Shown: positions 1,398 to 57,616 of the stretch, piece by piece | Layout of the letters: each line of letters starts with the position of its first letter | How positions within the stretch are numbered: the stretch's first letter is position 1 | Assembly: GCA_963842165.1 (NCBI GenBank) | Contig: CAWJFK010000005.1 | Coordinates: 198,070-262,069, forward strand | Direction: 5' to 3' | Source of the DNA: an uncultured Thermoplasmata archaeon | Lineage (GTDB): Archaea; Thermoplasmatota; Thermoplasmata; Lutacidiplasmatales; UBA184 | Length of the DNA: 64,000 bases | Notes under the pieces: generated by a model | Seen by the model: the letters and a program-made list of their open reading frames with translations, nothing else | Told to the model about the DNA's origin: nothing | Databases searched by the model: none | Program-made: the position numbers and the translations under genes

Positions 1398-2130
1398 TCA
1401 CTTGCGTTGGGCTTTTCGCGGGGGCTTGACGTACCCCCCCGCCAGGCGCTTCTCCTTCCCCTCGTAGTACGAATGCTCCGGATGCGCCTTGGGATTGGTA
1501 TCGTCCTTCCACCACATGTATCCGGTGTAGGGGGGTTCTATGTCGTCCTGCCAGAGCATGCAGAGGATCTCGCCCCGATGGAGGTAGTCCTCTTCGAGGA
1601 CATGCCAAATCCCCTCGCGCTCGGTAAAAATCCACTTTCCCCTTGTCGAGCCCACGTCATGCTTCCGGCGGAGCCGGGCTTCGGTCAGGGTGCGGCCGAC
1701 TTCCATCAACTCATGGTCGACCTGTCGGTCCAGCTCACGGAGCCGGTGCGCTCGTCACCCGGTCAAACTTCTTCTCGTTCAGGACCTTGAACAGGGGCTT
1801 GATTGACTGGCGACCGAACATCTTGACCAACCACCAAGTGTAGGCCCCGAGCACATGGAGGTGAACGTTCCGTATCGACCCGAACGTGGCTTCTCTGTTT
1901 CTCGTGAGCACTTCCCAAGGTAGCCGATCGTACAGGTCGAGGTACTTCGCACGGCTCCAACTCTGATACGCGATGATCCGCTGAGTCTCGTTCGCAAACC
2001 CCATGGTACCGCGGTCGCGGAGACGGTCCAACTCTGAATACCTTCCCAACTTCACCTCGTATATCGGCCGAACCTCAGAACGCGCGGCACGACGGGGGCT
2101 AGAACTGTTTGCAAGCACGATTGCGACCAC
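1398..2130 (-). CDS. DinB-family (DinB_2-like) protein, split by one frameshift near 1715-1735
   Basis: ORF 1735-2130 gives the N-terminal half (NVHLHVLGAYTWW). ORF 1398-1709 gives the C-terminal half with HVLEEDYLHRGEI, the typical DinB His...H-RG motif. A paralog lies at 57088-57616. Confidence 0.6.
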
Positions 2131-2337
2131 TCACCGCACTCTGCAAAAGACGCTCGCCGGAAGCATCCAGGGCTGTAAGGATGGGCTGGCCACTAAGATG
2201 TACGAAGTGCGTGGGAGTCGGCTGCTGCAACCAGATCCGCCGAGCTAGGAGGGTCTTAGTCTGCTCGATTTGACCCCTGCTTTAAGTACCCAACTTCAAT
2301 GAACTTTCGGGCGCAGAAGCCCAGAGGATGAGAAAGG

Positions 2338-3078
2338 ATGGCGTTTATTGACGACTTGGGGTTTAGTGTCGCACTGATCCTTGCCGGGGCAGCGGTCCTC
2401 TGCTACGCGTCCCTGCGGGGCTTCTGGCACATGCTCCGGAACGACCCTGCCCAACTGCGGGGGGCCATCAAGGGGTCCGCAATCCCCTCCGGCTTCATCG
2501 GCGCAGTTGCCCTCTCCCTCGGCCTCTTCACGGAGTACACTTGGCCCTACTTGCCGGCCGACGGACTCGGCTCGTATAACATCTTTTTTGGAGATGTCAC
2601 CTGCCTCTTTGGCATGGTCATGCTGGTCTACGCCATCGTCGCGTTCTATGGACTCAAGCTCGAGTACGCGGGCCTGTTCGGGTTCGTCGCGGGCATAATC
2701 ACCGCTTGGTATGGGTACTGGGGGTACACGACCCTGGTAAAGCCCGGTGTCTTCGGATTGACGAAGGACCCCCTCGAGACTTTCCTTCTCTACGGGGCGT
2801 ACGCGGCCGCAGGAGTTCTCTCACTTCCAGCCGCCTTGGTCGTGGATTACTACCTCGAGCACCCGGGACCTACATTCCCGAAGCTCTCGATGAGCAGGAA
2901 GCCCATTACGGACCCGGTCGAGGAGAACAAAGCGACCCCGGTGAGTGGCCGGTACCACGTGCCGTACTGGGTGTACGCGCTGACCGTCTGGTTCCCCATC
3001 TTCATGTTCCTGGCGGCGCTCGCGGCCTGGTTCTACATCGGAGACATCCTGCCGGGCCACCTCTCCAGTCCGCCCTGA
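2338..3078 (+). CDS. Polytopic integral membrane protein (possibly DUF981-like; family uncertain)
   Basis: ATG at 2338. There are 6-7 hydrophobic segments rich in G/A/Y/W. A TTTAAGTA box lies about 55 nt upstream. Stop is TGA. Confidence 0.7.
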   Translation: MAFIDDLGFSVALILAGAAVLCYASLRGFWHMLRNDPAQLRGAIKGSAIPSGFIGAVALSLGLFTEYTWPYLPADGLGSYNIFFGDVTCLFGMVMLVYAIVAFYGLKLEYAGLFGFVAGIITAWYGYWGYTTLVKPGVFGLTKDPLETFLLYGAYAAAGVLSLPAALVVDYYLEHPGPTFPKLSMSRKPITDPVEENKATPVSGRYHVPYWVYALTVWFPIFMFLAALAAWFYIGDILPGHLSSPP

Positions 3079-3222
3079 GGGGTAGGACGCCCAACCGGTT
3101 CAATCGACCGCGAGGGGGGCTGCCCAACCGGGTAGCTCCTCCCTCGCCCCGCCGCTCATGTGCAGCCGTTGCCACCTTGCGCGGGGGCGTCGGGGCAACT
3201 TCGATAGCGGCCCCCCCACCGG

Positions 3223-3994
3223 TCAATGTGTGGAACGTGAGGTTCGAGGAGGCGCCCTCGCGGACGCCGTCCTCCAGCGACCCGGCCTTCCCTGGCTCCG
3301 GAACCCGTAGAGCCCCAGTCCGGCCCTCCCGGAGGGCGTGGCATTCCGCCAACGGGCCCAGTGAGCTAGGGCCGGGCATAGACCTCCGCCCGGTCCATGA
3401 TCGACGATCGCGATCCCGCTTCGGGTCAATCGGGGATCGAGCCGGAAGAACTCCTGCTGGGAACGTCGGTCGTCGTGCGGGACGTCGTAGACGAACAGGT
3501 CCACTCGGTCCAATTCCTCGGTAAAGAGCGGGATGATGTCGGCCTTGTCGCCGATTCGAAGGTCCCACCGTGCGTCGGAGCGACTCCGGCACGGCCCATC
3601 CGGATTCTCGCCCCGTAGGAAGGGACCACGACGGGTTCTTGGATGCTGGTCGCGTCCCAGCGCGGGAGGGGGTCCGCTTGGGTCGGTCGATCGAATGGAG
3701 GGTTCCATGCTCATTCCGCTCGAGCGCCTGCAGTAGGTACGCCGAAGATACTCCCGAGGATACGCCGACCTCGACGACGTGTCGGGGGCGCACCAAACGG
3801 ACAATCGCGTACAGTTCTAGGGGCGCATCTATCTCGATGTAGGAGGCCCGTCCCTCTTTTGCGTGTTCAGCGGAAAGATGGTTGAACAACCGTCGTTCTC
3901 GACCGGCCTCCTGGACGAATCGGTCCGCCGCTCCCAGCTCGCTGGCCGTGAGCCCCGCGACCCACGGCACATCGACGTCGTCCTCGGCGCGCAT
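3223..3994 (-). CDS. Class I SAM-dependent methyltransferase (Methyltransf_24-like), frameshift near 3580
   Basis: N-terminal half has VVEVGVSSGVSSAYLLQAL (SAM-binding GxGxG-type loop). C-terminal half, in another frame, reads RWDLRIGDKADIIPLFTEELDRVDLFVYDVPHD...GIAIVDH. Confidence 0.6.
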
Positions 3995-4020
3995 GGGGTC
4001 AGTTCCTGCGAGGGTCCGTC

Positions 4021-4465
4021 CTACTCGAGAAGTCCCTTCGTATCTCCGATCCACTCCGAGGCGCGTTCCACCTTCGGGCGCGCTGCCAAGATCCGGTTGG
4101 TACGCTGCGTCCAAGCTGAGTTTCTCCGCTCGGTGGAGGTACCAGGCTCCCGCCAGAGGGGACCGACGCACTCCGTGACCACAAAACATCAGCACCGGCT
4201 CGTTCCGGGCGCGTGCGGCCCCGACCGACTTCGCCAGCTTGTCAAGGTTGGCCACGATGGCTCGGTCCGTCGATTCGTCGTAGATCTGGACATGCGTCCC
4301 CTCCGGCATATCGTCGGGCTCCTCATCCAGAACGCAGAATCGGGTTCCTCGGAATTTGGTCGCGTCCCTCCATCCACCGACGAAGACGTCTGGGGCGATT
4401 TCCGAGGGGCCGGCGGGTCGGGAACTCGGGCGCGCGGCGTGCGGGGGCTTCCGAGAGGCTGCCAT
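4021..4465 (-). CDS. Dual-specificity / protein-tyrosine phosphatase, frameshift near 4085
   Basis: Active-site loop is VLMFCGHGVRRSPLAG (C-x5-R-S). After LSLDAAYQ, a frame switch gives RILAARPKVERASEWIGDTKGLLE-stop (TAG complement at 4021-4023). As sequenced, the ORF instead runs on into the methyltransferase. Confidence 0.65.
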
Positions 4466-4585
4466 GATCGCTTCAAGCTCCGACCGACAGATAAGCGACG
4501 CATGTGGGTGGAACACTGACTGTGCAACATATGATTCGCGCAGGGCGGGCTAATCCTCTAAGTCTACCGCGACCCTGTCTCCGCT

Positions 4586-5640
4586 GTGAGAGTCGCCCCC
4601 CGAGTGATGCTCAGCCCGGAGGAACGCGTACATCTTGAACGCCTGTCCCGGATGCGCGACCCCGAGGACCCACGCCGGCTGCGCGCCCGGATCATCTTGG
4701 GCGCGGCCGAGGGGGAGGAGGATATCGAAATCGGCCAGGCCCTGGGGGTCGCGCGCCAGACCGTCGCTCGCTGGCGTCATCGATTCCTCCTCGCCCGTCT
4801 CCGAGGTATCGAACGCACGAATCCACCTCGGCTGACCCGGGGGCGGATCCCCGAGCAGCGCATTCGGTCAGTCGTTCGAGCCACGGTCGCGCATCACCAC
4901 TCGGACAGCCGCCTCCCGAGCCTGCGAAGCCTCGGGCGGTCGTTCGGGGTCAGCCACACCACAATCCGTCGGGTGTGGGAAGAGAACGAGCTCCGTCCGG
5001 TGCGGTTTGAGGCCTGGCCCGCCCGCCCCGATCCCAGTCGCCCGCTTCAGCCGCTGGACGTGATCGGGGTCTACTTGGGTCCGCCCGACTTTGCTGTTGC
5101 CTTCTCCGTCGGACCACCCCTACCTACTCGGGCCGTACCGGCGTCCCCCGTTGGACCCGTCCCCAGTGGTATCGGGCGCTCAACGAGTTGATCGAAGATT
5201 GGGCGGCTCGGCCCGACTCGAGCCGCGTAGGGCACCGCCGGGACTTCTATCGGTTTGTCGCGGAGCTCGGCGAGCTCGGGCGTGATCGGACCAAGATCCA
5301 TGTGATCGCGACCGGGCCCGGAATCACGTCGAGCCATCCACTCCAGCGGTGGCGGGTCCGCCATCCTCGGGTGATGTTCGAATTCCCGGTCATTCATGAG
5401 GACTGGCGCAGTCGTGTAGTCGCTTCACTCTCGGAAATCGGAGGAGCGGAGAGAGGTCCGCGCACCTTTGCGACCCGCGTGGAGTTGGCTCGCGCGATCC
5501 GGCTCTTTCTAGAGAGCTATTCTGACTCGGGAGGCCCCTTCCAATGGGTCGCCTCCCCCAAGGACACGGCGGCCCAGGTCGCGATCGGCCGGTTACGGTA
5601 CGACCTGAGCATTACAGGGCACGCTGGGTTCAAGACCCCG
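4586..5640 (+). pseudogene. Degenerate IS630-family transposase relic (HTH domains kept, DDE residues lost, internal deletion, frameshift near 5188)
   Basis: The N-terminus MRVAPRVMLSPEERVHLERLSR...GQALGVARQTVARWRHRF...GVSHTTIRRVWEENELRP is colinear with IS630 transposases. The expected catalytic D1 (VDEKSQ) region reads SVGPPLP, the D2 region reads IHVIATGP and the E region reads RSRVV. The C-terminus is GGPFQWVASPKD. Confidence 0.6.
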
Positions 5641-5658
5641 AACCCCGTCGATCCTCCG

Positions 5659-6781
5659 ATGAGCGGCCCCAACCGAAGCGCCAGCCGCGTTCGGGCGATG
5701 GCCCGTTCGGTCTTGGTCAAGTCCCTTCGCGTGCGAAAGAACGAGCGGGTGGTCGTGGAAGGCTGGACGGGCACCATGGAGGCGGCGAACGCCTTCGTCC
5801 TCGAGGCGTTGCGTCTGGGGGCCCAGCCGTTGCTCTTGTATCGGGACGAGCCAACCTATTGGGCCGCCGCGACCGAGATCCGCCCGCGGCTCTCGCGCGG
5901 ATAGGAGAGCACGAGCGGGCGGCCCTCGAACGGAGCGACGTCTTCGTCAGCTTCTTTGGCCCAAGCGATCGTGAGCGATTTCATGCGCTTCCGCGCGCCA
6001 CCATGCTCAAGCTCTGCGAGTTTCAGGACTCGCTCTACGATGCGGCGGCGAAGGCCGGGGCCCGGTCGGTTCAGTTGGCCCATGGTCGAGTATCGGAAGC
6101 GTCGGAGAGGATGTACGGGGTCGACCTCGACCGATGGCGCAACGAGCTGATTGACGCGACCTTGGTCGATCCGAAGGAGCTCGAACATCAGGCGCACCGA
6201 TTGGTGCAGCGGCTTCAGGATGGGAAAGAATTGACCGTTCGCCATGCGGGCGGGACCAATCTCCGTCTCGGGCTGCGGGGTCGCGTCCCCGACGCCGCGG
6301 TAGGAAAGGTGCGGGGAACCGACACGAGGAGGAAGTGGAACTTGGTCCAGCTGCCCGCAGGGGTGGTCACGGTCGGGCTGGACGAACGTGTCGCGGACGG
6401 GACGTTCTGCTCGAATGTCACGAACTCCGTGGGCGTCATGGATACGATCGGAGAGGTGAGCGGAGGGCGTTGGACCTTCGAGGACGGTGGTCTGAAACGA
6501 TTCCACTACGATCGAGGCCACCAGTTGTTCGCCCAGAGCTATGGCCGCGCCGGCCCGGCCGGGAGCGGCCCGGGATTCTTTCGATCGGGTTGAACGAACG
6601 GATCGAGATCGCGCCCCTCCTCCAGGACCAGGCCTACGGGGCGGTCACACTGCAATTGGGGAAGAACGATCACGTCGGGGGATCCAACCGCGTCAACTGG
6701 TGGGGCTGGCTCATCCTTCGGGGGGCTGATGTAGCGATCGATGGTGATCCCGTCGTTCGGGGAGGGAAGATCGTTCCGTGA
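5659..6781 (+). CDS. M29-family aminopeptidase (AmpS/aminopeptidase T-like), two frameshifts (near 5885 and 6565)
   Basis: Three consecutive frames give MARSVLVKSLRVRKNERVVVEGW...EALRLGAQP, then ...SDVFVSFFGPSD...ELTVRHAGGTNLRLGL..., then ...ILSIGLNERIEIAPLLQDQAYGAVTLQLGKNDHVGG. Confidence 0.65.
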
Positions 6782-8233: not shown

Positions 8234-9144
8234 CTACTTCGCTTCGGGGGGCCGCCCGTCCCGTCGGGGTTGCCTACCAATCAGCCGCCCGCGCCGCCAG
8301 AAGAACAGCCCTAGCGAAATTGCTACCGCTCCAAGCGTCGTCCCCACGACGACATACGCGACCGCGGGTGGTAGACCCAAGAGCGTTGGCGGCGCTGGCG
8401 AGATCGTGGACGTGAAGTTGATTGTCACCGCCACTGCGGATCCGGCCACAGTCACGAAACCGGTCGACGGGGAAGCCGAAAATCCGGAGACGTTACCGAG
8501 AGATACGGGTACGTCCCGTTAGGAAGCACGAGAGAAATGGCCGCAGTTGTTGCCGACTGCGTAGTTCCGTTGATGGCTACAGACCAAGTGGTGCCGCTGG
8601 GAAGGCCGTTCTCCATAAAGGTCACCATCGGAGGGGTCAAGGTGACGCAGATGTCGTTATTCAAGATTGGTGATGCCGTGAAGGTGTTGTTCAGGACGTC
8701 ACCGTACCAAATCTCCTCATGACACCAATTGCGGTTGCCGGGCGTTCCGTTCCAAACTTTCCAGGCGAGCTGCCAGACTCCGACCTCAGGGTAGGACCCA
8801 CCCGCCGGAGTGAGGTTCTCGGCGGCCCACTCCGTAGTCCCGTTGACCAATGTTGAACGTAGATCTCCCCATTCGTCAATCAGGTTCTCGAAGAGAGTAG
8901 TCGCACAGAGCTTGTGCCAAATGATCGTGACGTTCTTAGTGTAGTTCGTACCGGTCGTGTTGTAACTCTGGCCCGGCCACTGGCTCAACCCATTTGTCAG
9001 CTCGCAACTTACGTTCAACTCGCTGCTTGGTGGAGTCGAGGGAGACAGGATCGATGGAGAGGCGCGGGTGGGGGTGGGAAGGAGCAGGAGCCCAACGACG
9101 GCGACCGTAATCAGCAGGAACGCGGTGGTGGCGACGCTGCACAT
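8234..9144 (-). CDS. Secreted, sequon-rich surface (glyco)protein with a C-terminal TM anchor, frameshift near 8455-8475
   Basis: Signal/anchor TAFLLITVAVVGLLLLP and many N-x-S/T sites. The FMENGLPSGTTWSVAINGTTQS...LPNGTYPY module is common in archaeal surface proteins. The next frame continues VTVAGSAVAVTINFTSTISP...AYVVVGTTLGAVAISLGLFFWRRGR. Confidence 0.6.
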
Positions 9145-17178: not shown

Positions 17179-17950
17179 CTAGGGATCTCGCCATCGGGCA
17201 AAGTGCATCGCGATCCCGATGAAAAGGACCGTTAGCAGTACGAGCCCGACGAGCTGGCCTAGGGCCGAGGAGAGGAACGGAGCCCCGGGAACCGGTGTAA
17301 CGGGAAGGCCCGCCGCACTTACCGCGAGCTGGCTGGCGAACGTCGAGGGCGCCAGGTAAGCCACCCAGCGGAAGGGCGCCGGGACCGCTTCCAGAGTGTA
17401 GAAGACGGGAGGCAGTACCGACAAGCTCGTGAACACGACCATTCCGATGGGCCAAATCTCGCGAAGGGTCCGGAAGAATGTCGAGAGCAGAAACCCCAAG
17501 CTCGTGGCCAAGAGCCAGGTGAGGAGAATCACACCGATCAGGGCGAGAAACGTGGACACACTAACCGAGACGACCAGGGTAAGAACGACCAGAAACAGCA
17601 CCAGCGCCGGAATCGTGAAGGTCAGCTCGCTCAGCGCCATGCCGAGCACCCAAGAGATCGGACGCAGCGGGCTCGTGATGAACACCTGCTGCATCTGGCG
17701 CTCGAGCCGCAGGTAGGCGCAGTCGTTCATCATCCCGCTTCCGGTGAAGAGGCACGAGAAGAGCACGCCACCGACCACTCCGAAGGGCAGCTCGGCCCGC
17801 GGAGCGACGAACGTACAGGAAGAAGAGGAAGCTCACCGGCGTCAGGAAGAGCGCAACAAAGACCAACGGACTGCGGACCAGTCCGAGGAAGCCGTTGAAC
17901 CAACAGATTCGAAGGACCGCGTTGGCCTGGGTCCTCCACGTCATGCCCAT
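17179..17950 (-). CDS. ABC-2 type transporter permease, frameshift near 17815
   Basis: The N-terminal frame reads MGMTWRTQANAVLRICWF...FLFFLY. A third frame reads TFVAPRAELPFGVVGGVLFSCLF... and joins ORF 17179-17778, which has multiple TM helices. It overlaps the upstream ATPase gene by 10 nt. Confidence 0.7.
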
Positions 17951-24848: not shown

Positions 24849-25984
24849 CTAGCTCACAACGTACACCGTGTTGGTCCCAACGCCCACCACAAACATCTCG
24901 TCGCTGTACTCGTTGTCCGCGATTCCTGCGGGGTACGATCCGGCCGGGAGCTTGATCGTTTTCAGGACGGCCCCGTAGAATCCACCGATTACGCTCACGC
25001 TGTGCGAGCCATAGTTCGTCACATACATGTGGAGATTCGCCGAATCGAAGGCCATTCCGAGGGGGTTGGAACCGACGGAAATTGACGCCGTCCCGCCCGC
25101 GCAGATTGCGCACGTGACGGTCACGTTGCCTGAGCCGTAATCTGCGACAAAGGTGGTGCCCGCATTGGCCAGGAACCCGGCGATGTACGGGTCGTAGGCG
25201 ACGCCGTAGGGGTCGCTTCCTACAGGGACGAACGAGACCGAAGGAGTGATCGCATAGTACCCGAAAAGGCGCTCAGCTCGTTGCTCCCATAGTCGGTCAC
25301 CACCATCTGGTCGTCGAATGGGGAATAGGCAATCTCGGTTGGGACGTGACCACCGATGCTGAAGGTCCCATCGAGCACATACTCGTCCGAGGGAGCCATG
25401 GAAGTGACGGTGCCGTCCCCTTGGTTCGTCACGTACATGAATCCGTCATCCGGATCGTAGGCGATTCCGTGCGGCGCGTTGAAGTGGCAACCAAGGAAAG
25501 AACTGGCGCAACTGGAGTTGCTGATGGTGTCCTTCAACTTCGTGCCGTTGATGATGTAGACCTGATTCAGGGCGCCGTCCACCACATACATTTGGCCGTC
25601 GGAAGGGTCGAACGCCAAACCCCTGGGCGCCGCGCCCGAGGGGAGCGCGATGTTGGTCTTTACGTGGCAGGCCCCGTTGGCCAATGAGTCGTTCAACACA
25701 ACTACATACCCTGATAGAGTGGATACGTACACGTAGTGATTCACGGGATCATACGCGTCAAACACCGGACTTGACTTGACCACACATTTGGCCGTAATTC
25801 CGGTGCTGGGAGGTGGCGGGATTGCGACCCGACCTCCGAGCCCCGGAGGGAAGGAACCAGGGGAGTGGGGTGCGGATATGGGTCCACCGACCCCGATGAC
25901 GGAAGGTGCCAACGCCCCTCCGGCGAGCATGAGGAGAGCAATGGCTGCGCACCCACCTAAGACACCCACTCGTAGAGCGGTCAA
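24849..25984 (-). CDS. Secreted YVTN/YncE-like beta-propeller repeat protein, frameshift near 25255
   Basis: Signal anchor GGCAAIALLMLAGGALA. Repeats are HYVYVSTLSGYVVV, GQMYVVDGALNQVYII, GFMYVTNQGDGTVT and DQMVVTDYGSNELSAF. The next frame continues YYAITPSVSFVPVGSDPYGVAYDP...LHMYVTNYGSHSVSVI. Confidence 0.7.
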
Positions 25985-26522
25985 GGCCTCACCCCGTTCG
26001 AGGGGGATGCCGGACCCTCGGACCGAATTGTGTCACACCGCGTTCTGACCGGAAGAGGTTCGGACCCGTCGAACGACCGCATGCGGCGGTATCTGGATTC
26101 CAATACTTAGACTCGGCCAGACGTGCGGTTTTGGCGCGATCTATTCCCGTGCACTTCCCGCCGCGGGCCCGAACGCGCACCCTGACCGAGGGGTCTCTGA
26201 AGCGAATCTCGGAGCGCCCCTTCGGACGGAGAAACTACATGACCGACACACTTTCGCTCTGTGGACTAACTCGCGTTCGGCCAAGGAAGGTGCAGGATGT
26301 GTTGCACCGGCGGTCGACCAGGTGGTCGGGGGAGTGTGCCTCGCAGTTAAGCGGGCCTCGCCACGGGGGGCTTGAGGGTTGCTTCCAGCGGCAGGGGTAT
26401 GCGGTGCTAATTTGCCTCGCGCATCCGCATGTGCAGTCGGGAGGCCCTGAGTCCGGGAGCGGACGGTGTACTCGCGGGCGTCGAGGCCATCCTCGACGAC
26501 CTCTAGGCTGCGACCAGCAATA

Positions 26523-30393: not shown

Positions 30394-31174
30394 TCAGCAA
30401 CCACCTGTGACGTCGACTGAACGTCGATCCGCTACTCTTGTAATAGTAGGTAGTTCCCCCGAAGATCGCGGAGATGATCGAGGAGCCGCACGTGTTATCC
30501 GAGGGATGCCAGGTGAACGTGCAGGTGCCTTTCGAAGAGAGGGTGCACGTCCCCTTGTTCGAGAACGATCCTCCTCCCGAGCTCGAGAAGTGGAGCTTCC
30601 CGGCGGGGTATTTCGAGTTGTTCCAAAGGTTGGTGACTTTTGCGGTGCAGGTCGTCTTGCCTGCGACGTTGACGCTCGCCGGGGAGCAGGACAAGGTGGT
30701 CGAGGTCGGTGCAGCTTTGGTAAACTCAACGACGATCGTCCCGTTGTCGGTCGTGTAAGTGTAGGTGCATCCCCCGCCCCGGCCACTGTGACCATGGCAG
30801 GTGATGGTGTAGTTGGAGTCTGTGATCCCGTAGATGACCTTCCCGGTGTTCAGGTCCGTACCGAAAAAATTGCCGATCGTCCAGTAGGTGTAGGTACCGT
30901 TGAGCCTCTCGATGAAGGTCCAGTACGTGAGATTAGTGGATGTCTTCAGTTCCCCGGGGAGCTTCACTGACATCGATCCGGCGTGAAGGTAACCGCTACT
31001 GGTCCCGTTCGCCCAGCCCTTGCCGGCCGAAGTATTGAAGGCGAAGTCGCAACTCCAGTTCGAGCTGCACGTCGTGATTACCCCGTTCATTGGGGCGGTG
31101 GCCCCTGCAGCGGGCAGCAGGGCGAGAAGGAGCAAACCGACGGTACCCACCAAGCCGACCCTCAAGAGTCGCAT
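30394..31174 (-). CDS. Secreted Cys/Thr/Gly-rich Ig-like domain protein, probable frameshift near 30415
   Basis: Signal peptide MRLLRVGLVGTVGLLLLALLPAAGATAP. Contains TSTTLSCSPASVNVAGKTTCTAKVTN...GTCTLSSKGTCTFTW. A frame switch after SGSTFS gives VDVTGGC-stop at 30394. The 472-aa run-on ORF overlaps the + gene 29450-30250. Confidence 0.55.
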
Positions 31175-31361
31175 GCTTTTGGCAGAAATGGGGGTGGTTA
31201 AACGAACCCCCCCCGTTCCGGAAGCGGTCAATCGAGGAGGGCCAACGGCGATTGCACCAACCTGCCCCCGCGGTAATCAGAGATTTGGGTGCTGAGGGGC
31301 CTCGCTCCTGACGAGAAACGACAGTTTGAATAACGGCAATTTCCTGTCCCCTCGAGAGCCC

Positions 31362-38097: not shown

Positions 38098-38538
38098 GTG
38101 CAACCCTACGACCCCCAAAGACCTGCGACTCCGGAAACCTTTGCAGGTCGGCAAGACTTGGTTACCTTCGTCGGAAACGCGATCGAGGTGGGCAAGACAC
38201 TCCACCGGGGAAGTGCCGTCCTGTTGTGCGGGTACCGAGGTAGTGGCAAGACTTCCGCGCTCAGGAAGATTCAGTCGGTGGTCCGTGCGGCAACCCCGAG
38301 AGCAATCATCGTTGAGGTACCTCTGAGGGTCCCGAGTTCGGAGGCCATGTTGGTCCACGGTATCGCAGAGATGGTTCGAGGGCAGGTTGCCGCCCAGTCC
38401 GGACTGAATGCGCGAATGAAACAGGCGCTCGAACGCCTGAACTCGGTGACCGTGCTCGGCAGTGGGATTGGGATGACCCGGGCCCATCCCGTCTCCCCGT
38501 CGGCGTTGCTTGGTGTTTGGAAGGATGCTCTGACCTGA
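38098..38538 (+). pseudogene. AAA ATPase (PF01637/AAA_16-like) N-terminal fragment, truncated by IS insertion
   Basis: Walker A is LLCGYRGSGKTSAL. The reading frame runs into the IS left end and stops at 38536-38538. Confidence 0.75.
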
Positions 38539-40242
38539 TCTCCACGCCCGTTAGTTGCTAGCTCCCTTCCCGGACCCCTCCTTCTCCTCGAGGATCCGCA
38601 CTGTTCGACCGGCAGGTTCATTAGGAACATACGCACTACATAGTACGTATGGCGTTCCCTCGGGTCATCACCACGCGCGGCCGACACTATCTCCAGCAGG
38701 TCGAGTCGGTCTGGGACCCGAAGAAGAAGCGCTCCGTCACCCGGGTCCTCGCCCATCTCGGCCCCTGCGATGAGGGCGGCAAGCTCCTGCGCCCGCCTCG
38801 GGCCCGGGTGGAGAGCGTTCACTCCTCGTTTCCGGTCGGTCCTCTCGCCGTGCTGTATGCCGCGGCCCGTGAGCTCCGGGTGCGCGAGCATCTCCAGAGG
38901 GTTCTTCCGGGGGCTCTTACCGAGCTGATCCTGTGTCTCGCCCTGAACCAGGCCACGGCCCGCGTCCCGATCTGCCGCCTTCCCGAGTGGGTACGGGCGA
39001 GCCCGCTGCCTCGGTGGGAGAGCTTCCCGGCCGAGGAGCTAAGTCCTCGACACTTCGAGGAGGCACTCTCCTCGCTCTGTCACCTCACCCCGGAGAAGAC
39101 GTGGGAGGACCGGGGCCTCCTGCTTCAGCAGGAACTCACCGGGGCGTGGCGGGGCCGCTCTCGAGAGCCGGCGGCGCCTACTACGACATCACGAAACAGG
39201 CGTACTACGGGAAGCATTGTCCCTACGGCCAGTTGGGCCACGACGAGCGGGGCACGGCCCCGGTCGTGGGGTTCGGGATGGCCGTGTCCCGGGAGCATCA
39301 CCACCCGATCCTCTGTCGAGTCCTTCCCGGTGGACAGAACGATTCGCTGAGCGTGGCTCCCACGCTGGAGCTGCTCCAGTCCCAGGGTCTGCGGCATCTG
39401 ACGCTCGTGATGGACAAGGGGATGACGTCGAAGGCGAACGTGCTCCGAGCGCGCGAGGCGGGCTACCACGTCATCGGGTCGGTCAAGGGGTGGAGCGCCG
39501 AGTCGGTGGAGCATGCCTCTCGATGGCCCGGGGAGGAACTGGAGCGCTCGGAGTTCGTGGTCGGGACTTCCCATGGAGGGGCGGTGTATGCGCGGGCGTT
39601 CACGGCGCCGCTGCTGGGGCTACCGAAGGTGAGGATCGCGGTGGTGGAGAATCTCTCCCGCAAGGCGGAGGATCGCCAAGCGCGGGACCTTCTGCTTCAG
39701 GAGTTGGAGGGACCGGTGGCGAAAGCTCGGTTGGAGGAGATCCGCTCGGAACTGGGCGAGGTCATCGTCACCGCCCGAGGAAGGAGAGGGTTCCGAGTCG
39801 ACCCGAAGGCCGTGGAGCGGGAACGGGCGCTGGACGGCCGCTTCCTGCTGTTCAGTACGGTCCTCTCGCTCGACGGGCGAGCGATGTACCGGGAGGTACT
39901 TCGCGAAGGATGCGGTGGAGAAGGCGTTCCGCACGAGCAAGGGGGAACTGTCGCTGGGCCCGGTGAGGTATCGTCGGAAGGATCGGTTGGACGCCTACGC
40001 CACGGTGGTCTACGTGGCGTATTTGCTCTGGAGTTGGGCGGAGCGGAGGTTGCAGGAGAAATACCCCGAGCGGAGCCTGTCGGAGGCGATGCGCTCCCTC
40101 GAGAATCTGGCGTGGGTACGGTTTGGGACGGGAAATCCGTCCGGGAGTGGGCCACTCGCCTCACCACCGAGCAGGAGAAGGTTCTCGCCGCCGTCAGCGC
40201 CGTACAGTATGTAGCTACATACTAACAGGCCGCGAGCTCAGG
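38534..40242 (+). mobile_element. IS1634-family insertion sequence, copy 2 (1,709 bp), inserted in the AAA ATPase gene
   Basis: Imperfect terminal inverted repeats CCTGATCTC (left) and GAGCTCAGG (right). Flanked by direct TCTGA at 38529-38533 and 40243-40247. More than 99% identical by eye to copy 3. Confidence 0.9.
38649..40225 (+). pseudogene. IS1634-family DDE transposase (copy 2), multiply frameshifted
   Basis: Carries a private 1-nt deletion (GAGCCGGC-GGCGCC near 39170), the frameshift shared by all copies at 39878-39897, and a 1-nt loss near 40130 relative to copy 1. Confidence 0.85.
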
Positions 40243-40246
40243 TCTG

Positions 40247-40948
40247 ATGGTACTGGGTGGCCTCCCAATGCTATGCATCTGTGTAGACGACGCCGAACTC
40301 CTGAAGTCCGGTGAGATTGGGATCCTCAAGACCATGGTCGAGTCGGATTCGCCGGTCCCTCTCCTAATCTGTGTCGCCGGCGGACCCGAGCTCCTAGAGA
40401 AACTTTCACAAAGAGAGGCCTCACCAATTCTCAGGGCTTTTTCTGGGGCGAACTTCGATATCGGCCAATTCACTCTTGAGGAGACGAGAGAGGCACTTGA
40501 AGCTCCGCTGAGGGCGGCTAAGGGCACGTCTCGGTGGGAGCAGAAAGCGGTAGACACCATTCAGCGCCTGACGCACGGCTATCCATATCTGGTTCAGTGC
40601 TTCGCGGCGGCAACCTATCGAGAGGGTCAACGCCTCAAGGAAGATGATGTTGAGAAGGCCATTCCAGCTGCGCTGGGCTTGGCTTCAAGTTGGCTGGAGC
40701 GAGAGATCCCCGAAGCTTCTGACGAGGACATTCGCGCGTTTGCTAAGATTGCCGGTTTGGGCAAGAGCGAGCTCCGAAGTGTTGATGCCCTCCGTCTCGG
40801 AATCAATCACATCTATCTCTCACGGCTCGCGAAGCTAGGTGTCCTGAAGCGACTAGCCCGTGGTCACTATGAACTGCGCATGGCTCCTGCAATCGCATAC
40901 TTTCACGCGCTCCAGACGCGGCCTGGACGTCTCTTGACGTGGACTTGA
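40247..40948 (+). pseudogene. AAA ATPase C-terminal fragment (Walker B plus winged helix)
   Basis: Begins ...LPMLCICVDDAELL (Walker B hhhhDD-x-E) and ends with the wHTH-like LSRLAKLGVLKRLARGHYEL. It is in frame with 38098-38533 once the IS and one TCTGA are removed. Confidence 0.75.
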
Positions 40949-40985
40949 TGCATGGCCAGGTTGCCGCACGAGTTTCCGTCTCTGA

Positions 40986-42694
40986 CCTGATCTCCACGCC
41001 CGTTAGTTGCTAGCTTCCTTCCCGGACCCCTCCTTCTCCTCGAGGATCCGCACTGTTCGACCGGCAGGTTCATTAGGAACATACGCACTACATAGTACGT
41101 ATGGCGTTCCCTCGGGTCATCACCACGCGCGGCCGACACTATCTCCAGCAGGTCGAGTCGGTCTGGGACCCGAAGAAGAAGCGCTCCGTCACCCGGGTCC
41201 TCGCCCATCTCGGCCCCTGCGATGAGGGCGGCAAGCTCCTGCGCCCGCCTCGGGCCCGGGTGGAGAGCGTTCACTCCTCGTTTCCGGTCGGTCCTCTCGC
41301 CGTGCTGTATGCCGCGGCCCGTGAGCTCCGGGTGCGCGAGCATCTCCAGAGGGTTCTTCCGGGGGCTCCTACCGAGCTGATCCTGTGTCTCGCCCTGAAC
41401 CAGGCCACGGCCCGCGTCCCGATCTGCCGCCTTCCCGAGTGGGTACGGGCGAGCCCGCTGCCTCGGTGGGAGAGCTTCCCGGCCGAGGAGCTAAGTCCTC
41501 GACACTTCGAGGAGGCACTCTCCTCGCTCTGTCACCTCACCCCGGAGAAGACGTGGGAGGACCGGGGCCTCCTGCTTCAGCAGGAACTCACCGGGGCGTG
41601 GCGGGGCCGCTCTCGAGAGCCGGCCGGCGCCTACTACGACATCACGAAACAGGCGTACCACGGGAAGCATTGTCCCTACGGCCAGTTCGGCCACGACGAG
41701 CGGGGCACGGCCCCGGTCGTGGGGTTCGGGATGGCCGTGTCCCGGGAGCATCACCACCCGATCCTCTGTCGAGTCCTTCCCGGTGGACAGAACGATTCGC
41801 TGAGCGTGGCTCCCACGCTGGAGCTGCTCCAGTCCCAGGGTCTGCGGCATCTGACGCTCGTGATGGACAAGGGGATGACGTCGAAGGCGAACGTGCTCCG
41901 AGCGCGCGAGGCGGGCTACCACGTCATCGGGTCGGTCAAGGGGTGGAGCGCCGAGTCGGTGGAGCATGCCTCTCGATGGCCCGGGGAGGAACTGGAGCGC
42001 TCGGAGTTCGTGGTCGGGACTTCCCATGGAGGGGCGGTGTATGCGCGGGCGTTCACGGCGCCGCTGCTGGGGCTACCGAAGGTGAGGATCGCGGTGGTGG
42101 AGAATCTCTCCCGCAAGGCGGAGGATCGCCAAGCGCGGGACCTTCTGCTTCAGGAGTTGGAGGGACCGGTGGCGAAAGCTCGGTTGGAGGAGATCCGCTC
42201 GGAACTGGGCGAGGTCATCGTCACCGCCCGAGGAAGGAGAGGGTTCCGAGTCGACCCGAAGGCCGTGGAGCGGGAACGGGCGCTGGACGGCCGCTTCCTG
42301 CTGTTCAGTACGGTCCTCTCGCTCGACGGGCGAGCGATGTACCGGGAGGTACTTCGCGAAGGATGCGGTGGAGAAGGCGTTCCGCACGAGCAAGGGGGAA
42401 CTGTCGCTGGGCCCGGTGAGGTATCGTCGGAAGGATCGGTTGGACGCCTACGCCACGGTGGTCTACGTGGCGTATTTGCTCTGGAGTTGGGCGGAGCGGA
42501 GGTTGCAGGAGAAATACCCCGAGCGGAGCCTGTCGGAGGCGATGCGCTCCCTCGAGAATCTGGCGTGGGTACGGTTTCGGACGGGAAATCGTCCGGGAGT
42601 GGGCCACTCGCCTCACCACCGAGCAGGAGAAGGTTCTCGCCGCCGTCAGCGCCGTACAGTATGTAGCTACATACTAACAGGCCGCGAGCTCAGG
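40986..42694 (+). mobile_element. IS1634-family insertion sequence, copy 3 (1,709 bp)
   Basis: Same ends as copy 2. Flanked by TCTGA at 40981-40985 and 42695-42699. Same orientation as copies 1 and 2. Confidence 0.9.
41101..42677 (+). pseudogene. IS1634-family DDE transposase (copy 3), frameshifted
   Basis: This is the longest N-terminal frame (41101 to about 42340) and contains MAFPRVITTRGRHYLQQVESVWDPKKKRSVTRVLAHLG, YYDITKQAYHG and LVMDKGMTSKAN. The YFAKDAVEKAFRTSK motif is in the +1 frame. There are further 1-nt losses near 42580-42595. Confidence 0.85.
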
Positions 42695-42826
42695 TCTGAC
42701 AATCTGAGGGTGATCACAGGTTGACTGAGAGGACATTATCCAGCTGAAGCCGCCCGGGAACCCATACGGACCGGCCACCGGAATGTTGAGTAACCTTAGG
42801 TAAGGTTGCGCAAGGCCACGGCATAC

Positions 42827-42874: not shown

Positions 42875-43035
42875 TTCTCAGGAATGGGTATGGCCGAACG
42901 CGGTCAGATTCCTCGCCTGACCCCGACAACGAAGAGCATGCGGAGCTTGTCGAGTGGATTGGCGACGGCCCCTTCGACCCCGAAGCCTTCGACGCGTACG
43001 TCCTTGCGCTAGCTGCTGTCCCACGGACGCGGAAG

Positions 43036-43698
43036 TCAGCCCCGAACCGTACGGGCTTTCCGGGCACTTCCGCTCGGCCCGCGGCTAGTCCCCCGCGGCA
43101 GAAGCAGCAAGTCGGCCGCTTCCTCTGCTTCCCTGAGAAGCGTCTTGCGCGCCGTGCCCATTTTCGCCCGCACGGTCAAACCACGGACAAGGTCAGTGAC
43201 TTGGCTCGCCCGCGCGGCTACAGGAAAGTCCGACGGGATTTCTCCCGCGCTGATCCCGTCCCGGAAACGAAGTTCCACCATCGCCACGCCGCCAGCCGTA
43301 GCGTTCTGTAGGAACTGCCGGACCTCTGCGTCGTCCACAAGCGGCGCGACGCACACGAGAAGACAACCCGCAGGGCAGCCTTCCTCGGTCGCACTCTCGA
43401 CGGCGTACCTCAGGAAGCTGGCGAGCGAGTCGCGAAGAGGCTGCGGCGAGAAGATTGCCTTCGCAGCGACAGCGCCCTTCTTCTCTGCGTACGCCCTGAG
43501 GACGCGCAGGAATAACGTCCGCTTGTTCCCGAAGACTGCATACAGGCTCGGCCGACCAACGCCCATCCCGGCGACGAGATCGTCGATCGTCACTCCGTCG
43601 TAGCCCTTCGACCAGAACACCTGGGTCGCCTTTTGCAGCGCTTCCAGCTCGTCGAAGCTGCGCGGTCGTCCACGCGGCCTAGTGGTATTGTGAATCAT
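43036..43698 (-). CDS. TetR/AcrR family transcriptional regulator
   Basis: RPRGRPRSFDELEALQKATQVFWSKGYDGVTIDDLVAGMGVGRPSLYAVFGNKRTLF. Divergent from the SDR gene. Confidence 0.85.
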   Translation of the reverse strand: MIHNTTRPRGRPRSFDELEALQKATQVFWSKGYDGVTIDDLVAGMGVGRPSLYAVFGNKRTLFLRVLRAYAEKKGAVAAKAIFSPQPLRDSLASFLRYAVESATEEGCPAGCLLVCVAPLVDDAEVRQFLQNATAGGVAMVELRFRDGISAGEIPSDFPVAARASQVTDLVRGLTVRAKMGTARKTLLREAEEAADLLLLPRGTSRGPSGSARKARTVRG

Positions 43699-43873
43699 AT
43701 AGTTCAAAACTCCTTGCACCTGACCATCTGCTCTTTTTAACTGCTGTGTCACGACTTGTTGACGAGGGGCCTGACCGACACGGACATTTTGGGCACGGAT
43801 CCCGCCCTCAAGTAGGTTCGGGCACAGCATCTCTTATTATAGTACCAATCAGTTCCTAATTGGTAAGGCCACC

Positions 43874-44870
43874 ATGTCGTCGCGAGGAAACCATCCAAGA
43901 CACTCGACAGCTCTCGTCACCGGCACCACCTCCGGGCTCGGTTACGCGGCAGCCAGTATGCTCGCCGCCCAGGGCTGCCGCCAGGTCATCGTCACGGGCC
44001 GCACCCTGGCCCGGGTCCAGAAAACGGCCTCTCAGCTCGCAGCTGAGACAAAGACACAGGTCTTCACGCCGCTGGAGCTGGATCTGGGCTCGCCGACAAG
44101 CGTTCAGTCCGCTCTAGCCGAGCTGGTCAAGCTTGGTCGACCGATCGATTTTCTTCTGCTCAACGCGGGGATGCTCGGCGGCAAGGAGCGCGTGGTCACC
44201 GCGGCAGGGAATTGAGGCGGCTCAGGCCCCACTAATCGGCCATCATCAACTGACTATGGGGTTGCTCCGCGCCAACCTGCTTAGCCCCGGCGCGCGGATT
44301 GTTATCGCTGGCTCGGAAGCTGCCCGAGGGGACGTGCCCATGTTCAGCTACACCGACGTGGCGGACCTCGCGGTCACTCATCACCAGGGTGACCGAACTG
44401 CCGCCGTGGAAGCCCTGTTGCGCGGCGGGTCGAACGTGAAGTACCGACCCAACCGGGCGTTCGCCGACGCGAAGCTCATCGTCGCTTGGTGGGCCGCTGC
44501 ACTGGCGCGCCGCCTACCCTCCGGCATGGCCGTATACGCCGTCTCGCCCGGTGCCGCGCCCGACACCCAGGCGGTGCGGAACGCTGGGTCGGCCACGAAG
44601 TGGCTGTTGATTCCGCTGACAAAGCTCATCCCCGGCATGTCTCACACGCCGGAGACCGCGGCTCGTCGCTACCTCCAGGCATCGGAGTTCGGAACCGACG
44701 TCTCGGGCCAATTCTTCGCCTCGGCCCCCAAGAAGCTCACAGGCCCAATCGAGGCGATGCGCCACCCGCACTTTCACGATCGCGCCAACCAGGAAGCCGC
44801 GTGGCAGGCCGTCGTCAAGGTCTCCGGCGTCGACTTCCCCTCCGCAGCACCCTCGAGCGCTGTGTCCTGA
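43874..44870 (+). CDS. SDR family oxidoreductase, frameshift near 44208
   Basis: TALVTGTTSGLGYAAA (TGxxxGxG), LLLNAGM, then in the next frame GIEAAQAPLIGHHQLTMGLL...IVIAGSEAA...YRPNRAFADAKL (Y-x3-K). An extra A in GGGAATTGAG creates the stop at 44213. Confidence 0.75.
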
Positions 44871-45001
44871 GCGAACACCCGATCGCGCTGAGTTGAACGT
44901 GGTGACCCGAATGAGCCGGCGAGTCCTGGGTCGCCCTTCCCGCGCTTCGATCTCGTCGAGGCTGGACGGTGGCCCACGTGGCGCTCAGCTGAGCGACGGC
45001 T

Positions 45002-53333: not shown

Positions 53334-53407
53334 CGCTCGACTCCCCCCCGGGCATGGAAGGTTCGATATTAGGGATTCGAGGACCTCCCCGGGAGAAACG
53401 TCCGTGA

Positions 53408-53431: not shown

Positions 53432-53688
53432 ACCGCGGCCGGAGGATTTGATTGCTCTCGGGAGTTACCCACTGGCGAGAGATTTCGTCTTTGGCAAGGG
53501 GTCCCTTAACAAAATCCGAGGAATGGGTGTAACAGTCCTTGCACCTACAGGACCGGAACGATGGCGTATCCGATCCTCAGATTCGTTTCCAGCCGGTTCG
53601 AAGAGGGCTTTTAGCTGGTTCTTGTCTCTTGAGCGAGATGGGGACCCCCGGGACGAACACTTGGGACGAACGCCGGGTTTGGGAGGCG

Positions 53689-54460
53689 ATGGTTGCATGG
53701 CGGTGGGTCCCCCCGGCGTCACGCCGGTTTACGACCGACCGCTTCGATTTGATTGTAACACCGGGCTCGGTACAGCTTGACCACGGTGTATGGGTTTCAC
53801 GTCGAGGATCCGGAGAAAGTCGATGCTGCCTTGGACGAAGTTGAAGCTCTGGCCCGCTCGAACCAAGCCACGGGTGCTCGATTCCAGATCTTACCAACCA
53901 CTCAACCCCTGGACTTGGCGGAACGCCTCGAGCGAAGGGGGTACTTGGCCGTTGACGAGGGGGAAGTACTCGTCTACGACATCCGCGACGAGTCCGGTCG
54001 AGCCCGGCTCCCTGAATTCCCCGTCCCCGCCGAAATCTCGGCAAAAGAAGTGAGGAGCGACGAGGAGTACGTGGCGTTCGTAGGGCTCAACGCTCCAATC
54101 TGGGACATGCCCGAGCCGCCCGCGGAGACCCGAAGGGGTTTGGAGACAGATTTTCGCAAGCGAGTGACGGAGACCGGCCATTCGGGCCGCTACGTGGTCT
54201 GGCAGGCATCCACGCCGATCGGGCACGGTGGAATGGAGGTGGTGGGGCCCGTCGCCCGTTTCTGGGGGTCCGGCATTCTACCCGCGTATCGGAACCGGGG
54301 TGCATATGGAGCCCTCGTTCGCACGCGATGCGAGGACGCAGTCCGACAGGGGGCCGAGATCGCCCTCGTGACCGCACGGGTCGGCACCTCGGGACCAATC
54401 CTAAAGCGGCGTGGCTTCCGAGTCGTGGGGCCCATTCGCAATTTCGAAGTCCGCTGGTAG
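53689..54460 (+). CDS. GNAT family acetyltransferase; a possible frameshift near 53775 joins an upstream N-terminal segment
   Basis: Core WGSGILPAYRNRGAYGALVRTRCEDAVRQGAEIALV...ILKRRGFRVVG. The clean ORF is 53777-54460. The upstream frame reads ...FTTDRFDLIVTPGSVQL. Confidence 0.6.
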
Positions 54461-54477
54461 GACGAGTGCAAGACGGT

Positions 54478-54500
54478 GGTTGAAAGGTTGATTGCACCCA
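54478..54500 (+). repeat. Intergenic TGCA-box motif copy
   Basis: GGTTGAAAGGTTGATTGCACCCA, 18 nt after the GNAT stop in a convergent spacer. Confidence 0.75.
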
Positions 54501-54613
54501 TTCGAGCTCTCGTTAACTTTGCTCGTCCGGAAAGGGGTCCCCTAGCTATGACTCAGTAATGATCCGGAACAGGTCCGACCCACTTCAATTCCACAGCGAT
54601 TTATCACCCAGGT

Positions 54614-54910
54614 TCAATCTGTTCCTGGGATGATTGCTGCATTCAGGTCGGCGAACTCCCGGATTATCGCCAGCAGGGGTGCGAATTCCGGTGATCCGTA
54701 CCAAGACCGAAAGGCCGCTGAACTAGGGAATTCGAATACCTCCAAGGTTCGGGGTTTCCACCGGCCCTCGAGAATCTCCGGTTCGGGGCTCGCAGCCAGT
54801 ACCCGACCGCCAAACTTCTCAAGAACGGAGAAGAACGGTTCAACAACTTTCGCGTGCTGACCCTCGTCGTGCCACTTTATGTCCACGACCAGGTAGGCAG
54901 GCACGGTCAA
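54614..54910 (-). CDS. DUF1330 domain protein (paralog 2)
   Basis: TTG start. MTVPAYLVVDIKWHDEGQHAK...FGGRVLA...LEVFEFPSSAAFRSWYGSPEF. Confidence 0.8.
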   Translation of the reverse strand: MTVPAYLVVDIKWHDEGQHAKVVEPFFSVLEKFGGRVLAASPEPEILEGRWKPRTLEVFEFPSSAAFRSWYGSPEFAPLLAIIREFADLNAAIIPGTD

Positions 54911-54992
54911 TCAATTCCTCAAGGGAAGCCCCGTATCTATACCCTCCTTCAGCCGGCGTGGTCAATTCGGTTCTCTCCGGCGATTGGCAAGG

Positions 54993-56919
54993 TCAAGCGA
55001 GCTTAGCCTTCTTCAACAACGCCTCAAACCTCGGATCCCTCCGAACGTGCTCAAACACTGGATCAAGCCGTAAGTCGTGGAAAGCGATGTACGTGGGGCC
55101 TTCGACGGCGTGCTCCAGCCGGCGTAGGCTTTCCTCCACGTCTCCGAGTGCGGCGTACATCCAGGCGAACGACCATGTGCCGAAGCCGGGCTCCGGCAGC
55201 GACTCTTCCTCTAGAAGCAGCGCTCGGCACTTCTCGTTCTCACCGGAGAACGCACAGTACACCGCGCGAAGCCACCGCTTAGAGTCGGGGTCGGATTGAA
55301 GATTCTCTAGTCGTGAGATTTCCTTTAGAAAGAGGTCGGTTTCCCCCTGAATCCGGTAGTAGGAAGCCAAGTTTCCATGATAGGTTTCACCGTCGGGCTG
55401 CAATTCTCCCAACTTCTGAATCCGGGCAAACGCCTCTTCAAACTTTCCCAGCCAAGTGAGTAGATGAGCATGGTGCGAGAGGTTCCAAGGGGAAAGTGGA
55501 TCGGATGCCTCGGCCAGCGCCCACTCTGAGAGCGCCTCCCCAATCCGAACCTGCCACGAGAGCAACTCTGGCGTACCAGTGATGCGCCTGCGAGTAGCTC
55601 GGGTTTAACGAAAGGGCGCGTTTGAACTCCTTTTCGGCTCCGGCCCAGTCCCAGTCGAGCCAGAGGGTGGCCGCCGAGGATGCATGGGCCTCGGCGAGAT
55701 TCGGGTCGAGTTCGATCGCCCGTTCTGCCAATCGTCGGCCGGTCTCTTTCTGCTCCTTCGCTGACATCCCGAGTTGGGACGACCCATACAGACGAACGAG
55801 GTCAGACAGACCGGAATAGGCAGAAGCGTTCTGGAAATCCAAGGTGATTGCGAGATCGAACTGCTCATGAGCCGCTTTCCAAGAAACTGTGTTCTCTTGA
55901 TGCATGAGGGTGCGTCCCTTCAGGTAGGCGAGGTAGGAATCCGGCCGCACTGTGGGCGTGTTGTCTAGCCTGGCCCCTTCGGTGGGCTGGAGTTCGACCC
56001 TCAGGCTTTCCGCAACCAGTTTGGCAATCTCGGCTTGAACTGAGAACACATCATCAAGTTCCCGGTCGTAAGTCTTCGCCCAGAGATGCCTGTCTGAACG
56101 GGCGTCGATCAGCTGCGCGGTGATCCTTAACCGGTTCCCGGCTTTCCGCACGCTCCCCTCAAGGATGGAGGTGACGCCCAGTTCCGTTCCGATCTGGGAG
56201 GCCGACTTGGGTGTGGCCTTGTACAGCATCACCGAGGTACGAGAAATGACACGAAGCTCTCGCAACTGGGAGAGGACAGTAATCAGCTCCTCGGTGAGCC
56301 CATCAGCAAAGTACTCGTCTTTGGGGTCTGGGCTAATGTTGGAAAAGGGAAGGACAGCGATACCGGCTGGACTGGAGCTCTCCGAGCTGGCCCCGCCCAG
56401 GGCCCGAGGAGGAACCACACGGTATAGGGACAACGGCGTTCTCAATCCCTTGAACTCCATTGGCGGAAGCTTCTCGATTCCTTCCGATACTTTGTTCCAC
56501 ACCTGTTCGTGCACGGCGTTCGAGATGCAGATACCGTCGGGTTCGGCGGCGGCTTGGATTCTAGACGCGATGTTCACCGCATCGCCGAAGATGTCGCTCC
56601 CCTGCTCCTCGACGTCTCCCAAGTGGATGCCAATGCGGAGATGGAAGGGAGCGGCCCCGGGTCCTGCGTTGCGCCCAGAGACTCTCCGCTGGATCTCTAC
56701 GGCGCATTGAGTCGCCCGCAGAGCGCTGTCGAATTCGACCAGAAACCCATCCCCCATCGACTTGATCTCGCGCCCTTGGTGGGCGGTAAGAACGGAGCGG
56801 ACGAGTGCCGCTTGCTCCTCGCGGAGCTTGAGCGCCGCGGCCTCGTTGAGCTGCGCCGCGGCGGTCGAGCCGACCATGTCAGTAAACATGATGGCGGAGA
56901 GTCGACGAACTGAGGCCAC
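54993..56919 (-). CDS. Class III adenylate cyclase / TolB-N-like / TPR protein (paralog 3), frameshift near 55560
   Basis: GTG start. IMFTDMVGST, KSMGDGFLVEF, GIHLGDV, DIFGDAVNIASRIQ, then IAVLPFSNISPDPKDEYFADGLTEELI. After ...SQAHHWYARVAL the TPR region continues in ORF 54993-55565 (SWQVRIGEALSEW...). Confidence 0.8.
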
Positions 56920-57087
56920 GGCTCGAAAGCCGCTTCTGTTAGATTAAGGCCCTGCAGGCGCCATGGGTTGCCCGAAAGGGGCCGGTTTGCTAATGACCGG
57001 GTCGCCAGATGGGGGGTCTGTAGACCCATCCATTGAAGTGCGTGCAACAGTTGTTGCATACAGGTCGCGCGTTGAACTCGCTCGCCG

Positions 57088-57616
57088 CTACGAAGGTGGG
57101 TCCTTGATCCGGCCCACCGTGTGGGCCCACCTGACCCAACTCAGGACCGGCGGGTTGACGTCGATCTGCCAGAGCAGTGCATTGAGTTCACCCCGATGCT
57201 GGAGCTCTTCTTCGACCAGATGCCAGAACGCTTCTCGTACCGGGACCTGACAGTTGTGGTCCGACCCCCGCCCCTTCACGCGGGTGATCGGTACGGGAGA
57301 GATCGGCTTCGGTCAGCTCCGCCATGACCCGGTGGATCTGGGTCTGGATGTACGTCTCGTCCTTCTTCAGAACGTCGATGGTGGGCGGACCTTCCGATTC
57401 ACCTTCTTGCGGAGGGAAGGGAAACGTTGCGCAGTCCTTCATCCAGAAGTAGAGAGCACCTTGAGAGTGCGCGAAGATATCGAGTATGGAAGGGAACGAC
57501 GTGCCCCGGTCGCGTGTCAGCTCTGCTTGAGGCAGTTTCGCGAGCGCCTCAAGGTAGCCCCGATGCGCGTCGGCGATGTAGGCGAACCACGCACGAATCA
57601 ACTCTACTTCGGACAT
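57088..57616 (-). CDS. DinB-family protein, frameshift near 57270
   Basis: The N-terminal ORF carries ADAHRGYLEAL...ILDIFAHSQGALYFW. The C-terminal ORF carries FWHLVEEELQHRGELNALLWQ. Confidence 0.65.

Follow-up and report, generated by a model that had tools for sequence, protein, structure and literature searches.

Are the many genes that are broken by single-nucleotide frameshifts in one stretch of archaeal DNA decaying in the organism, or were they broken during assembly? The stretch (G000:C5:198070-262069; hereafter the window) comprises 64 kb of the draft genome G000 of an uncultured Thermoplasmata archaeon, an assembly of 2.15 Mb in 30 contigs with a GC content of 0.68. The original prediction, made from the letters of the window, was that at least 12 of its genes are frameshifted and that an uncorrected long-read or low-coverage assembly would produce this pattern. 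The observation is correct and somewhat understated, in that all 12 named genes are split between adjacent frames of the same strand. The proposed cause is supported by a genome-wide rate of such shifts, by the essential genes that they break and by an extra base in an SDR gene that is absent from relatives. We therefore consider the frameshifts to be very probably an artefact of the assembly and not mutations of the organism, with a probability of roughly 0.9.

Interrupted genes in the window and across the genome

To examine the interruptions, we translated all frames around the 12 genes, scanned the resulting pieces against Pfam and ran uninterrupted open reading frames (ORFs) from the homologous loci of relatives against the window by tblastn. 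Base-level comparison with five relatives was informative at positions 42940-44940, the only part that was close enough (93-94% identity); the remaining DNA of the window is 65-75% identical to theirs and non-syntenic, and we therefore chose a protein-level, frame-aware comparison. For nine genes (the first DinB-family gene, the methyltransferase, the helix-turn-helix (HTH)-M29 gene, the surface protein, the ABC-2 permease, the NHL/YVTN propeller, SDR, GNAT and the second DinB gene), a single intact ORF of a relative aligned as two abutting high-scoring segment pairs (HSPs) in different frames of one strand. Pfam domains were divided between the pieces of the first DinB gene (DinB, profile positions 4-62 and 81-161), the methyltransferase gene (Methyltransf_24, 1-34 and 39-103) and the second DinB gene (DinB/MST, 8-94 and 115-143). 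The first piece of the SDR gene covered only positions 2-89 of the 195 in adh_short, the second piece of the permease gene held positions 52-205 of ABC2_membrane, NHL matched in both pieces of the propeller gene, and the cyclase gene showed Cyclase and TPR in one piece and TPR in the other. Pieces of the M29 aminopeptidase, the surface protein and the secreted protein had no Pfam matches, and the intact ORFs of relatives resolved all three. The window contains 13 firm shifts and one ambiguous shift (5168-5179), each of them net +1 or net -1; eight or nine are net +1 and five are net -1.

ORF-length statistics did not discriminate in these GC-rich genomes. For a genome-wide count we took stop-to-stop ORFs with coding-type codon-position GC, about 1 Mb from five relatives (G011, G003, G010, G005 and G022), aligned them to the entire G000 assembly and counted the changes of frame between neighbouring HSPs. 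Each query ORF had to keep the phase of its third-codon-position GC (GC3) on both sides of the shift. This yielded 93 unique phase-checked shifts in 332 kb of orthologue-covered DNA on 19 contigs (0.28 per kb), or about one single-base indel per 3.5 kb of coding DNA on all contigs tested, and about 30% of the matched ORFs in G000 carried a shift. All query sets gave rates of 0.21-0.43 per kb, and rates for individual contigs were mostly 0.15-0.42 per kb, with 0.17 for C5, the contig of the window. In the reciprocal test, the relatives showed 0.038-0.039 (G011, G005 and G022), 0.056 (G003) and 0.10 (G010) per kb. The raw count of frame changes was rejected as a measure for the clean relatives, in which it reflected mirror images of the shifts of G000 itself; these arise because a query that reads through out of frame finds a match in the wrong frame of the subject, and the GC3-phase filter removed most of them. 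With 13-14 shifts in 64 kb (about 0.22-0.26 per kb), the window equals the genome average and is not special in shift density.

The shifts do not spare essential genes. Broken in G000 are RNA polymerase subunit B, RtcB (two shifts), tetraether synthase Tes, ATP synthase C, methylmalonyl-CoA mutase, exosome Rrp41, SMC, family-B DNA polymerase, glycerol-1-phosphate dehydrogenase and aIF1/SUI1, as well as TFB, which is 97% identical to its G005 orthologue on either side of the shift. A free-living archaeon could not function with such genes inactivated. DNA alignments with orthologues at about 85% identity showed isolated single gaps at TFB, Rrp41, SUI1, rpoB and a thiolase, and several of these gaps were inserted bases without a homopolymer. 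We found that indels can be private to G000: the extra base of the SDR gene is absent from three relatives. This base had been described as an A. It is a C (GCGG-C-AGGG) at a site where the window reads CA and the relatives show either C or A, and GGGAATTGAG, the sequence to which the extra A had been assigned, occurs in the intact G011 copy too.

These observations bear on a rival explanation, that of genuine large-scale pseudogenisation in a reductive or mutator lineage with hundreds of real frameshifts. The shifts are, after all, present in the deposited sequence, the window carries insertion sequence (IS) copies and accessory genes, and one IS indel is common to three copies. Beyond the inactivated essential genes, however, the direction of the shifts is wrong: genome-wide, 71 are net +1 and 22 net -1, opposite to the deletion bias that Mira, Ochman and Moran reportedly described in prokaryotic pseudogenes in 2001. 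We looked for an excess of nonsense codons and found none (0.145 interior in-frame stops per kb in G000 versus 0.20-0.44 in controls), and we looked for decay downstream of the shifts and found none (70.0% identity to orthologues upstream, 72.4% downstream). G000 is among the largest genomes in its genus and not reduced, and redundant contig ends disagree by indels. Pseudogenisation on this scale fails because the sparing of essential genes, the nonsense codons and decay, and the deletion bias are all missing, and we regard it as highly unlikely.

Sequence context and redundant copies

The original prediction placed the shifts, where they could be localised, in short homopolymers or simple runs. 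This detail is weak: the longest run that touches any zone in the window is 1-3 nucleotides (nt), and 'short homopolymer' therefore carries little information. Genome-wide, runs of at least 4 nt touched 27.4% of shift zones versus 16.5% expected, a mild effect. Two palindromic tetramers were far more prominent. CCGG was found in 60 of 106 zones (29.6 expected) and GTAC in 21 of 106 (7.8 expected), the latter mostly as GGTAC/GTACC (16 versus 3.9 expected), and none of 2,000 shuffles within coding ORFs reached the observed count for either tetramer. In the window, 4 of 13 zones lie at GTAC (4099, 17809, 25256 and 53769) and several at CCGG. CGCG, GGCC, GCGC, GATC and TCGA were at expectation in the same shuffle test; GATC had seemed frequent by eye and was dropped as a context motif (16 versus 18.4 expected). 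The flank composition of all GTAC sites did not separate G000 from its relatives, because too few sites are affected.

Such a preference for particular motifs points to a process that is systematic and depends on context. Several DNA methyltransferases of N6/N4 type are encoded in G000, and the genes for these at C5:24087-24751 and C23:20111-20829 are themselves split; no C5-type DNA methyltransferase was found in G000. That methylation disturbs base-calling at CCGG and GTAC, and so clusters the errors, is a conjecture, and inserted bases could also stem from a mixed-strain consensus. Real indels could also mark mutational hot spots at CCGG/GTAC, for example through error-prone repair at the target sites of restriction-modification systems. 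We hold this to be extremely improbable; if it were true, the assembled lineage would be heavily pseudogenised or heterogeneous. Recoding, in which ribosomal frameshifting at a recurrent signal is programmed or tolerated, would likewise account for zones that are non-random and rich in CCGG and GTAC. However, shifts of both +1 and -1 occur, a slippery heptamer is absent, CCGG and GTAC are palindromes found on either strand, the orthologues of relatives are unshifted at the same sites, and indels of this kind distinguish two assemblies of a single locus. The probability of recoding is practically nil.

Where G000 contains the same locus more than once, the copies can be compared directly. The contig ends C3:11043-11982 and C20:56548-57484 overlap over 946 nt with 14 indels and 8 mismatches. 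Contig C15 (7.2 kb; C15:3-7161) duplicates C4:7958-15107 at 92% identity with 78 gaps, 71 of them of 1 nt, and looks like a poorly resolved strain variant. In self-alignments of G000, 132 gaps were of 1 nt, five of 2 nt, two of 3 nt and one of 4 nt.

A 1.72-kb IS with a DDE transposase of roughly 533 residues is present in six copies in G000, among which 1-nt indels are about as numerous as substitutions. Three copies (C5:185059-186786, C22:60475-62205 and C23:195903-197638) are mutually indel-free and keep the 533-residue ORF. The six-copy alignment bore out the private indels that had been predicted for the three copies in or beside the window: their private lesions are one base of a 1-2-nt run that is duplicated or lost, or a garbled 14-nt patch. 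These three copies also have one extra C in common that the three intact copies lack, which is a possible real marker of a sub-lineage.

The IS copies adjoin the patch at 42940-44940, which holds a 265-residue gene and the SDR gene and is 93-94% identical to G011, G003 and G010. The core genes of these three genomes are only about 70-75% identical to those of G000. This difference suggests recent horizontal exchange of the patch within the genus.

The shared C and the patch raise a mixed case, in which the genome-wide shifts are errors and several of the 12 broken genes of the window are real pseudogenes of a decaying acquired island. The low GC of the window (0.58-0.64 versus 0.68 for G000 as a whole), its three IS copies, its non-syntenic content, a 2-kb patch that closely matches other species and the indel common to the IS copies would all suit such an island. 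The density of shifts leaves no excess to explain, however, since it equals the genome average, the sequence contexts are the same in the window as genome-wide, and the SDR shift is private to the G000 assembly. We think this mixed case very unlikely, and note that this accessory region, rich in IS copies and low in GC, may contain a minority of real lesions.

Shift zones gene by gene

Shift zones were placed by scanning for the position that best joins the two frame halves, except for the cyclase gene, for which we used paralogue alignments of its two parts.

Table 1. Positions of frameshifts and IS lesions in the window, with the evidence for each.
Feature	Position	Strand	Lesion and evidence
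DinB-family gene (1401-2055)	1745-1756	-	Net +1; intact ORFs of five relatives align in frames -2 then -3
Methyltransf_24 gene (3277-3994)	3570-3575	-	Net +1; 248-residue ORF of G015 in frames -1 then -2
Dual-specificity phosphatase (about 4021-4495)	4099-4100	-	Net +1; at GTACC; three-frame translation against G015 and G010 C-termini
HTH-M29 ORF (4583-6775), possible third shift	5168-5179	+	Net -1; ambiguous; relatives have one 740-756-residue ORF
M29 aminopeptidase part, shift	5878-5886	+	Net -1; three relatives align in frames 1 then 3
M29 aminopeptidase part, second shift	6555-6556	+	Net -1; three relatives in frames 3 then 2; context GCCGGCCCGGCCGG
Surface protein (8237-9144)	8501-8502	-	Net -1; 312-residue ORFs of G090 and G007 in frames -2 then -1
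ABC-2 permease (17182-17947)	17809-17811	-	Net +1; adjoins CTGTAC; G003 and G023 ORFs in frames -1 then -2
NHL/YVTN propeller gene (24855-26113)	25256-25262	-	Net -1; at GGGTAC; 421-residue ORF of G015 in frames -1 then -3
Secreted protein (30397-31183)	30419-30422	-	Net +1; 9 codons before the stop; matching tail in next frame
SDR gene (43874-44870)	44205	+	Extra base; G011, G003 and G010 at 93-95% identity all without one base
GNAT gene (53539-54457)	53769-53770	+	Net +1; at GGTAC; 306-residue ORF of G102 (86% identity) in frames 1 then 2
Cyclase / C-terminal TPR gene (54996-56919)	about 55545-55573	-	Net +1; approximate; paralogue alignment
Second DinB/MST gene (57091-57664)	57285	-	Net +1; 199-residue ORF of G011 in frames -1 then -2
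IS copy, starting 441 nt before the window	1-1286		Two private 1-nt insertions and the common extra C; six-copy alignment
IS copy	38528-40248		Two private 1-nt deletions (GG to G) and the common extra C; six-copy alignment
IS copy	40977-42699		14-nt mismatch patch, 2-nt gap and the common extra C; six-copy alignment

Some of these shifts distort the gene models in ways that are easily overlooked. In tblastn the phosphatase appears intact; the C-termini in G015 and G010 are matched by 25 final residues (RILAARPKVERASEWIGDTKGLLE*) that the window encodes in the +1 frame. As assembled, phosphatase and methyltransferase (window 3074-4549, minus strand) form one read-through ORF of 504 residues (3002-4516), which is a false fusion made by the phosphatase shift. 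The secreted protein ends in ...SSGST..VTGGC* in relatives, and the window ORF as assembled continues to 29813 with about 200 spurious codons. For the M29 aminopeptidase, the two shifts that had been predicted both proved firm, and the gene may carry a third: this zone falls within a linker of low conservation and coincides with an overlap of stop and start codons (5188-5191). Three relatives encode the M29 aminopeptidase as the C-terminal portion of one ORF that has HTH domains at its N-terminus, and this fusion of HTH and peptidase, in the window and in the relatives, is unusual. For the cyclase gene, residues 1-446 of the window's own intact paralogue align in one frame and residues 455-643 align to the other piece (E 3e-7). 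A G011 paralogue of the cyclase-TPR family (L074, G011:C12:19500-24000) has a single in-frame stop between its ORFs at 1416-2741 and 2745-3434.

Source of the indels and known systems

The frameshifts are very probably consensus errors of an unpolished or thinly covered metagenome assembly of long-read type. A long-read platform is suggested by contiguity, low marker completeness and the indel-dominated disagreement of redundant contigs, and the errors would depend on context (CCGG and GTAC), through methylation that disturbs base-calling or through a mixed-strain consensus. Marker completeness of G000 is only 68.84%, although the assembly ranks with the larger and more contiguous ones of the genus, in which others of 2-10 contigs reach 74-94%. 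An artefact fits this low completeness despite contiguity, and it also fits the insertion bias, the lack of a nonsense excess and the disagreement of overlapping contig ends, which is mostly by 1-nt indels.

Several points weigh against an artefact. The evidence is comparison of sequences, and no single indel is directly disproved by it. With short HSPs, the phase test is not fully reliable in deciding whether a shift belongs to the query or to the subject. The window is atypical in its low GC, its three IS copies and its non-syntenic genes, and real pseudogenes there would be unsurprising; the extra C common to three IS copies looks inherited and may be real. Classic nanopore errors are homopolymer deletions, whereas the shifts in G000 are mostly insertions with a mild enrichment of homopolymers, so that any assignment of platform and pipeline is tentative. 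Finally, the modification-linked nanopore errors described so far have been mainly mismatches and not indels (PMC10687267).

If the shifts are artefacts, as we consider very probable, they amount to a data-quality warning and not a biological finding. Roughly one third of the gene models in this species-representative metagenome-assembled genome (MAG) would be split, truncated or falsely fused, and the completeness of 69% probably understates a nearly complete genome. Calls of a 'pseudogene', 'missing pathway', 'novel small ORF' or 'gene fusion' from G000 must first exclude a 1-nt error, for which clustering at CCGG/GTAC offers a cheap flag of suspect sites; the same clustering may hint at the methylation motifs of the organism. 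G003 (4 contigs, 83% complete) has frameshifts of its own, among them one by which a phosphatase loses the frame of its CX5R motif (L067, G003:C3:888000-894000), as does G010 (2 contigs, 78% complete), in which an SDR gene has two extra bases (L004, G010:C1:304115-308980). The quality problem thus seems common to highly contiguous genomes of the genus, with at least these two showing a milder form.

Among known systems, genomes under reductive evolution, such as those of Mycobacterium leprae and recent endosymbionts, keep their essential genes intact and have accumulated deletions, nonsense codons and sequence decay. G000 resembles them in its high fraction of interrupted genes and differs in that its essential genes are broken and that deletion bias, nonsense codons and decay are not seen. 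A closer likeness is found among unpolished MAGs from nanopore or PacBio continuous long reads (CLR), in which indels have been linked to truncated ORFs and lowered CheckM completeness (PMC8103633; PMC9262707). G000 shares with these its genome-wide single-base indels, its numerous split genes, a marker completeness that is low for contigs of such length, and an error load that is higher at the ends of contigs and in duplicates of low coverage. Unlike them, it has about three insertions for each deletion, homopolymers are only mildly enriched, and CCGG/GTAC is the strongest context. Systematic nanopore errors mediated by base modification (PMC10687267) likewise occur at short specific motifs, and G000 has N6/N4 methyltransferases; those cases are chiefly mismatches whereas G000 has indels, and methylation of CCGG/GTAC in G000 is conjectural.

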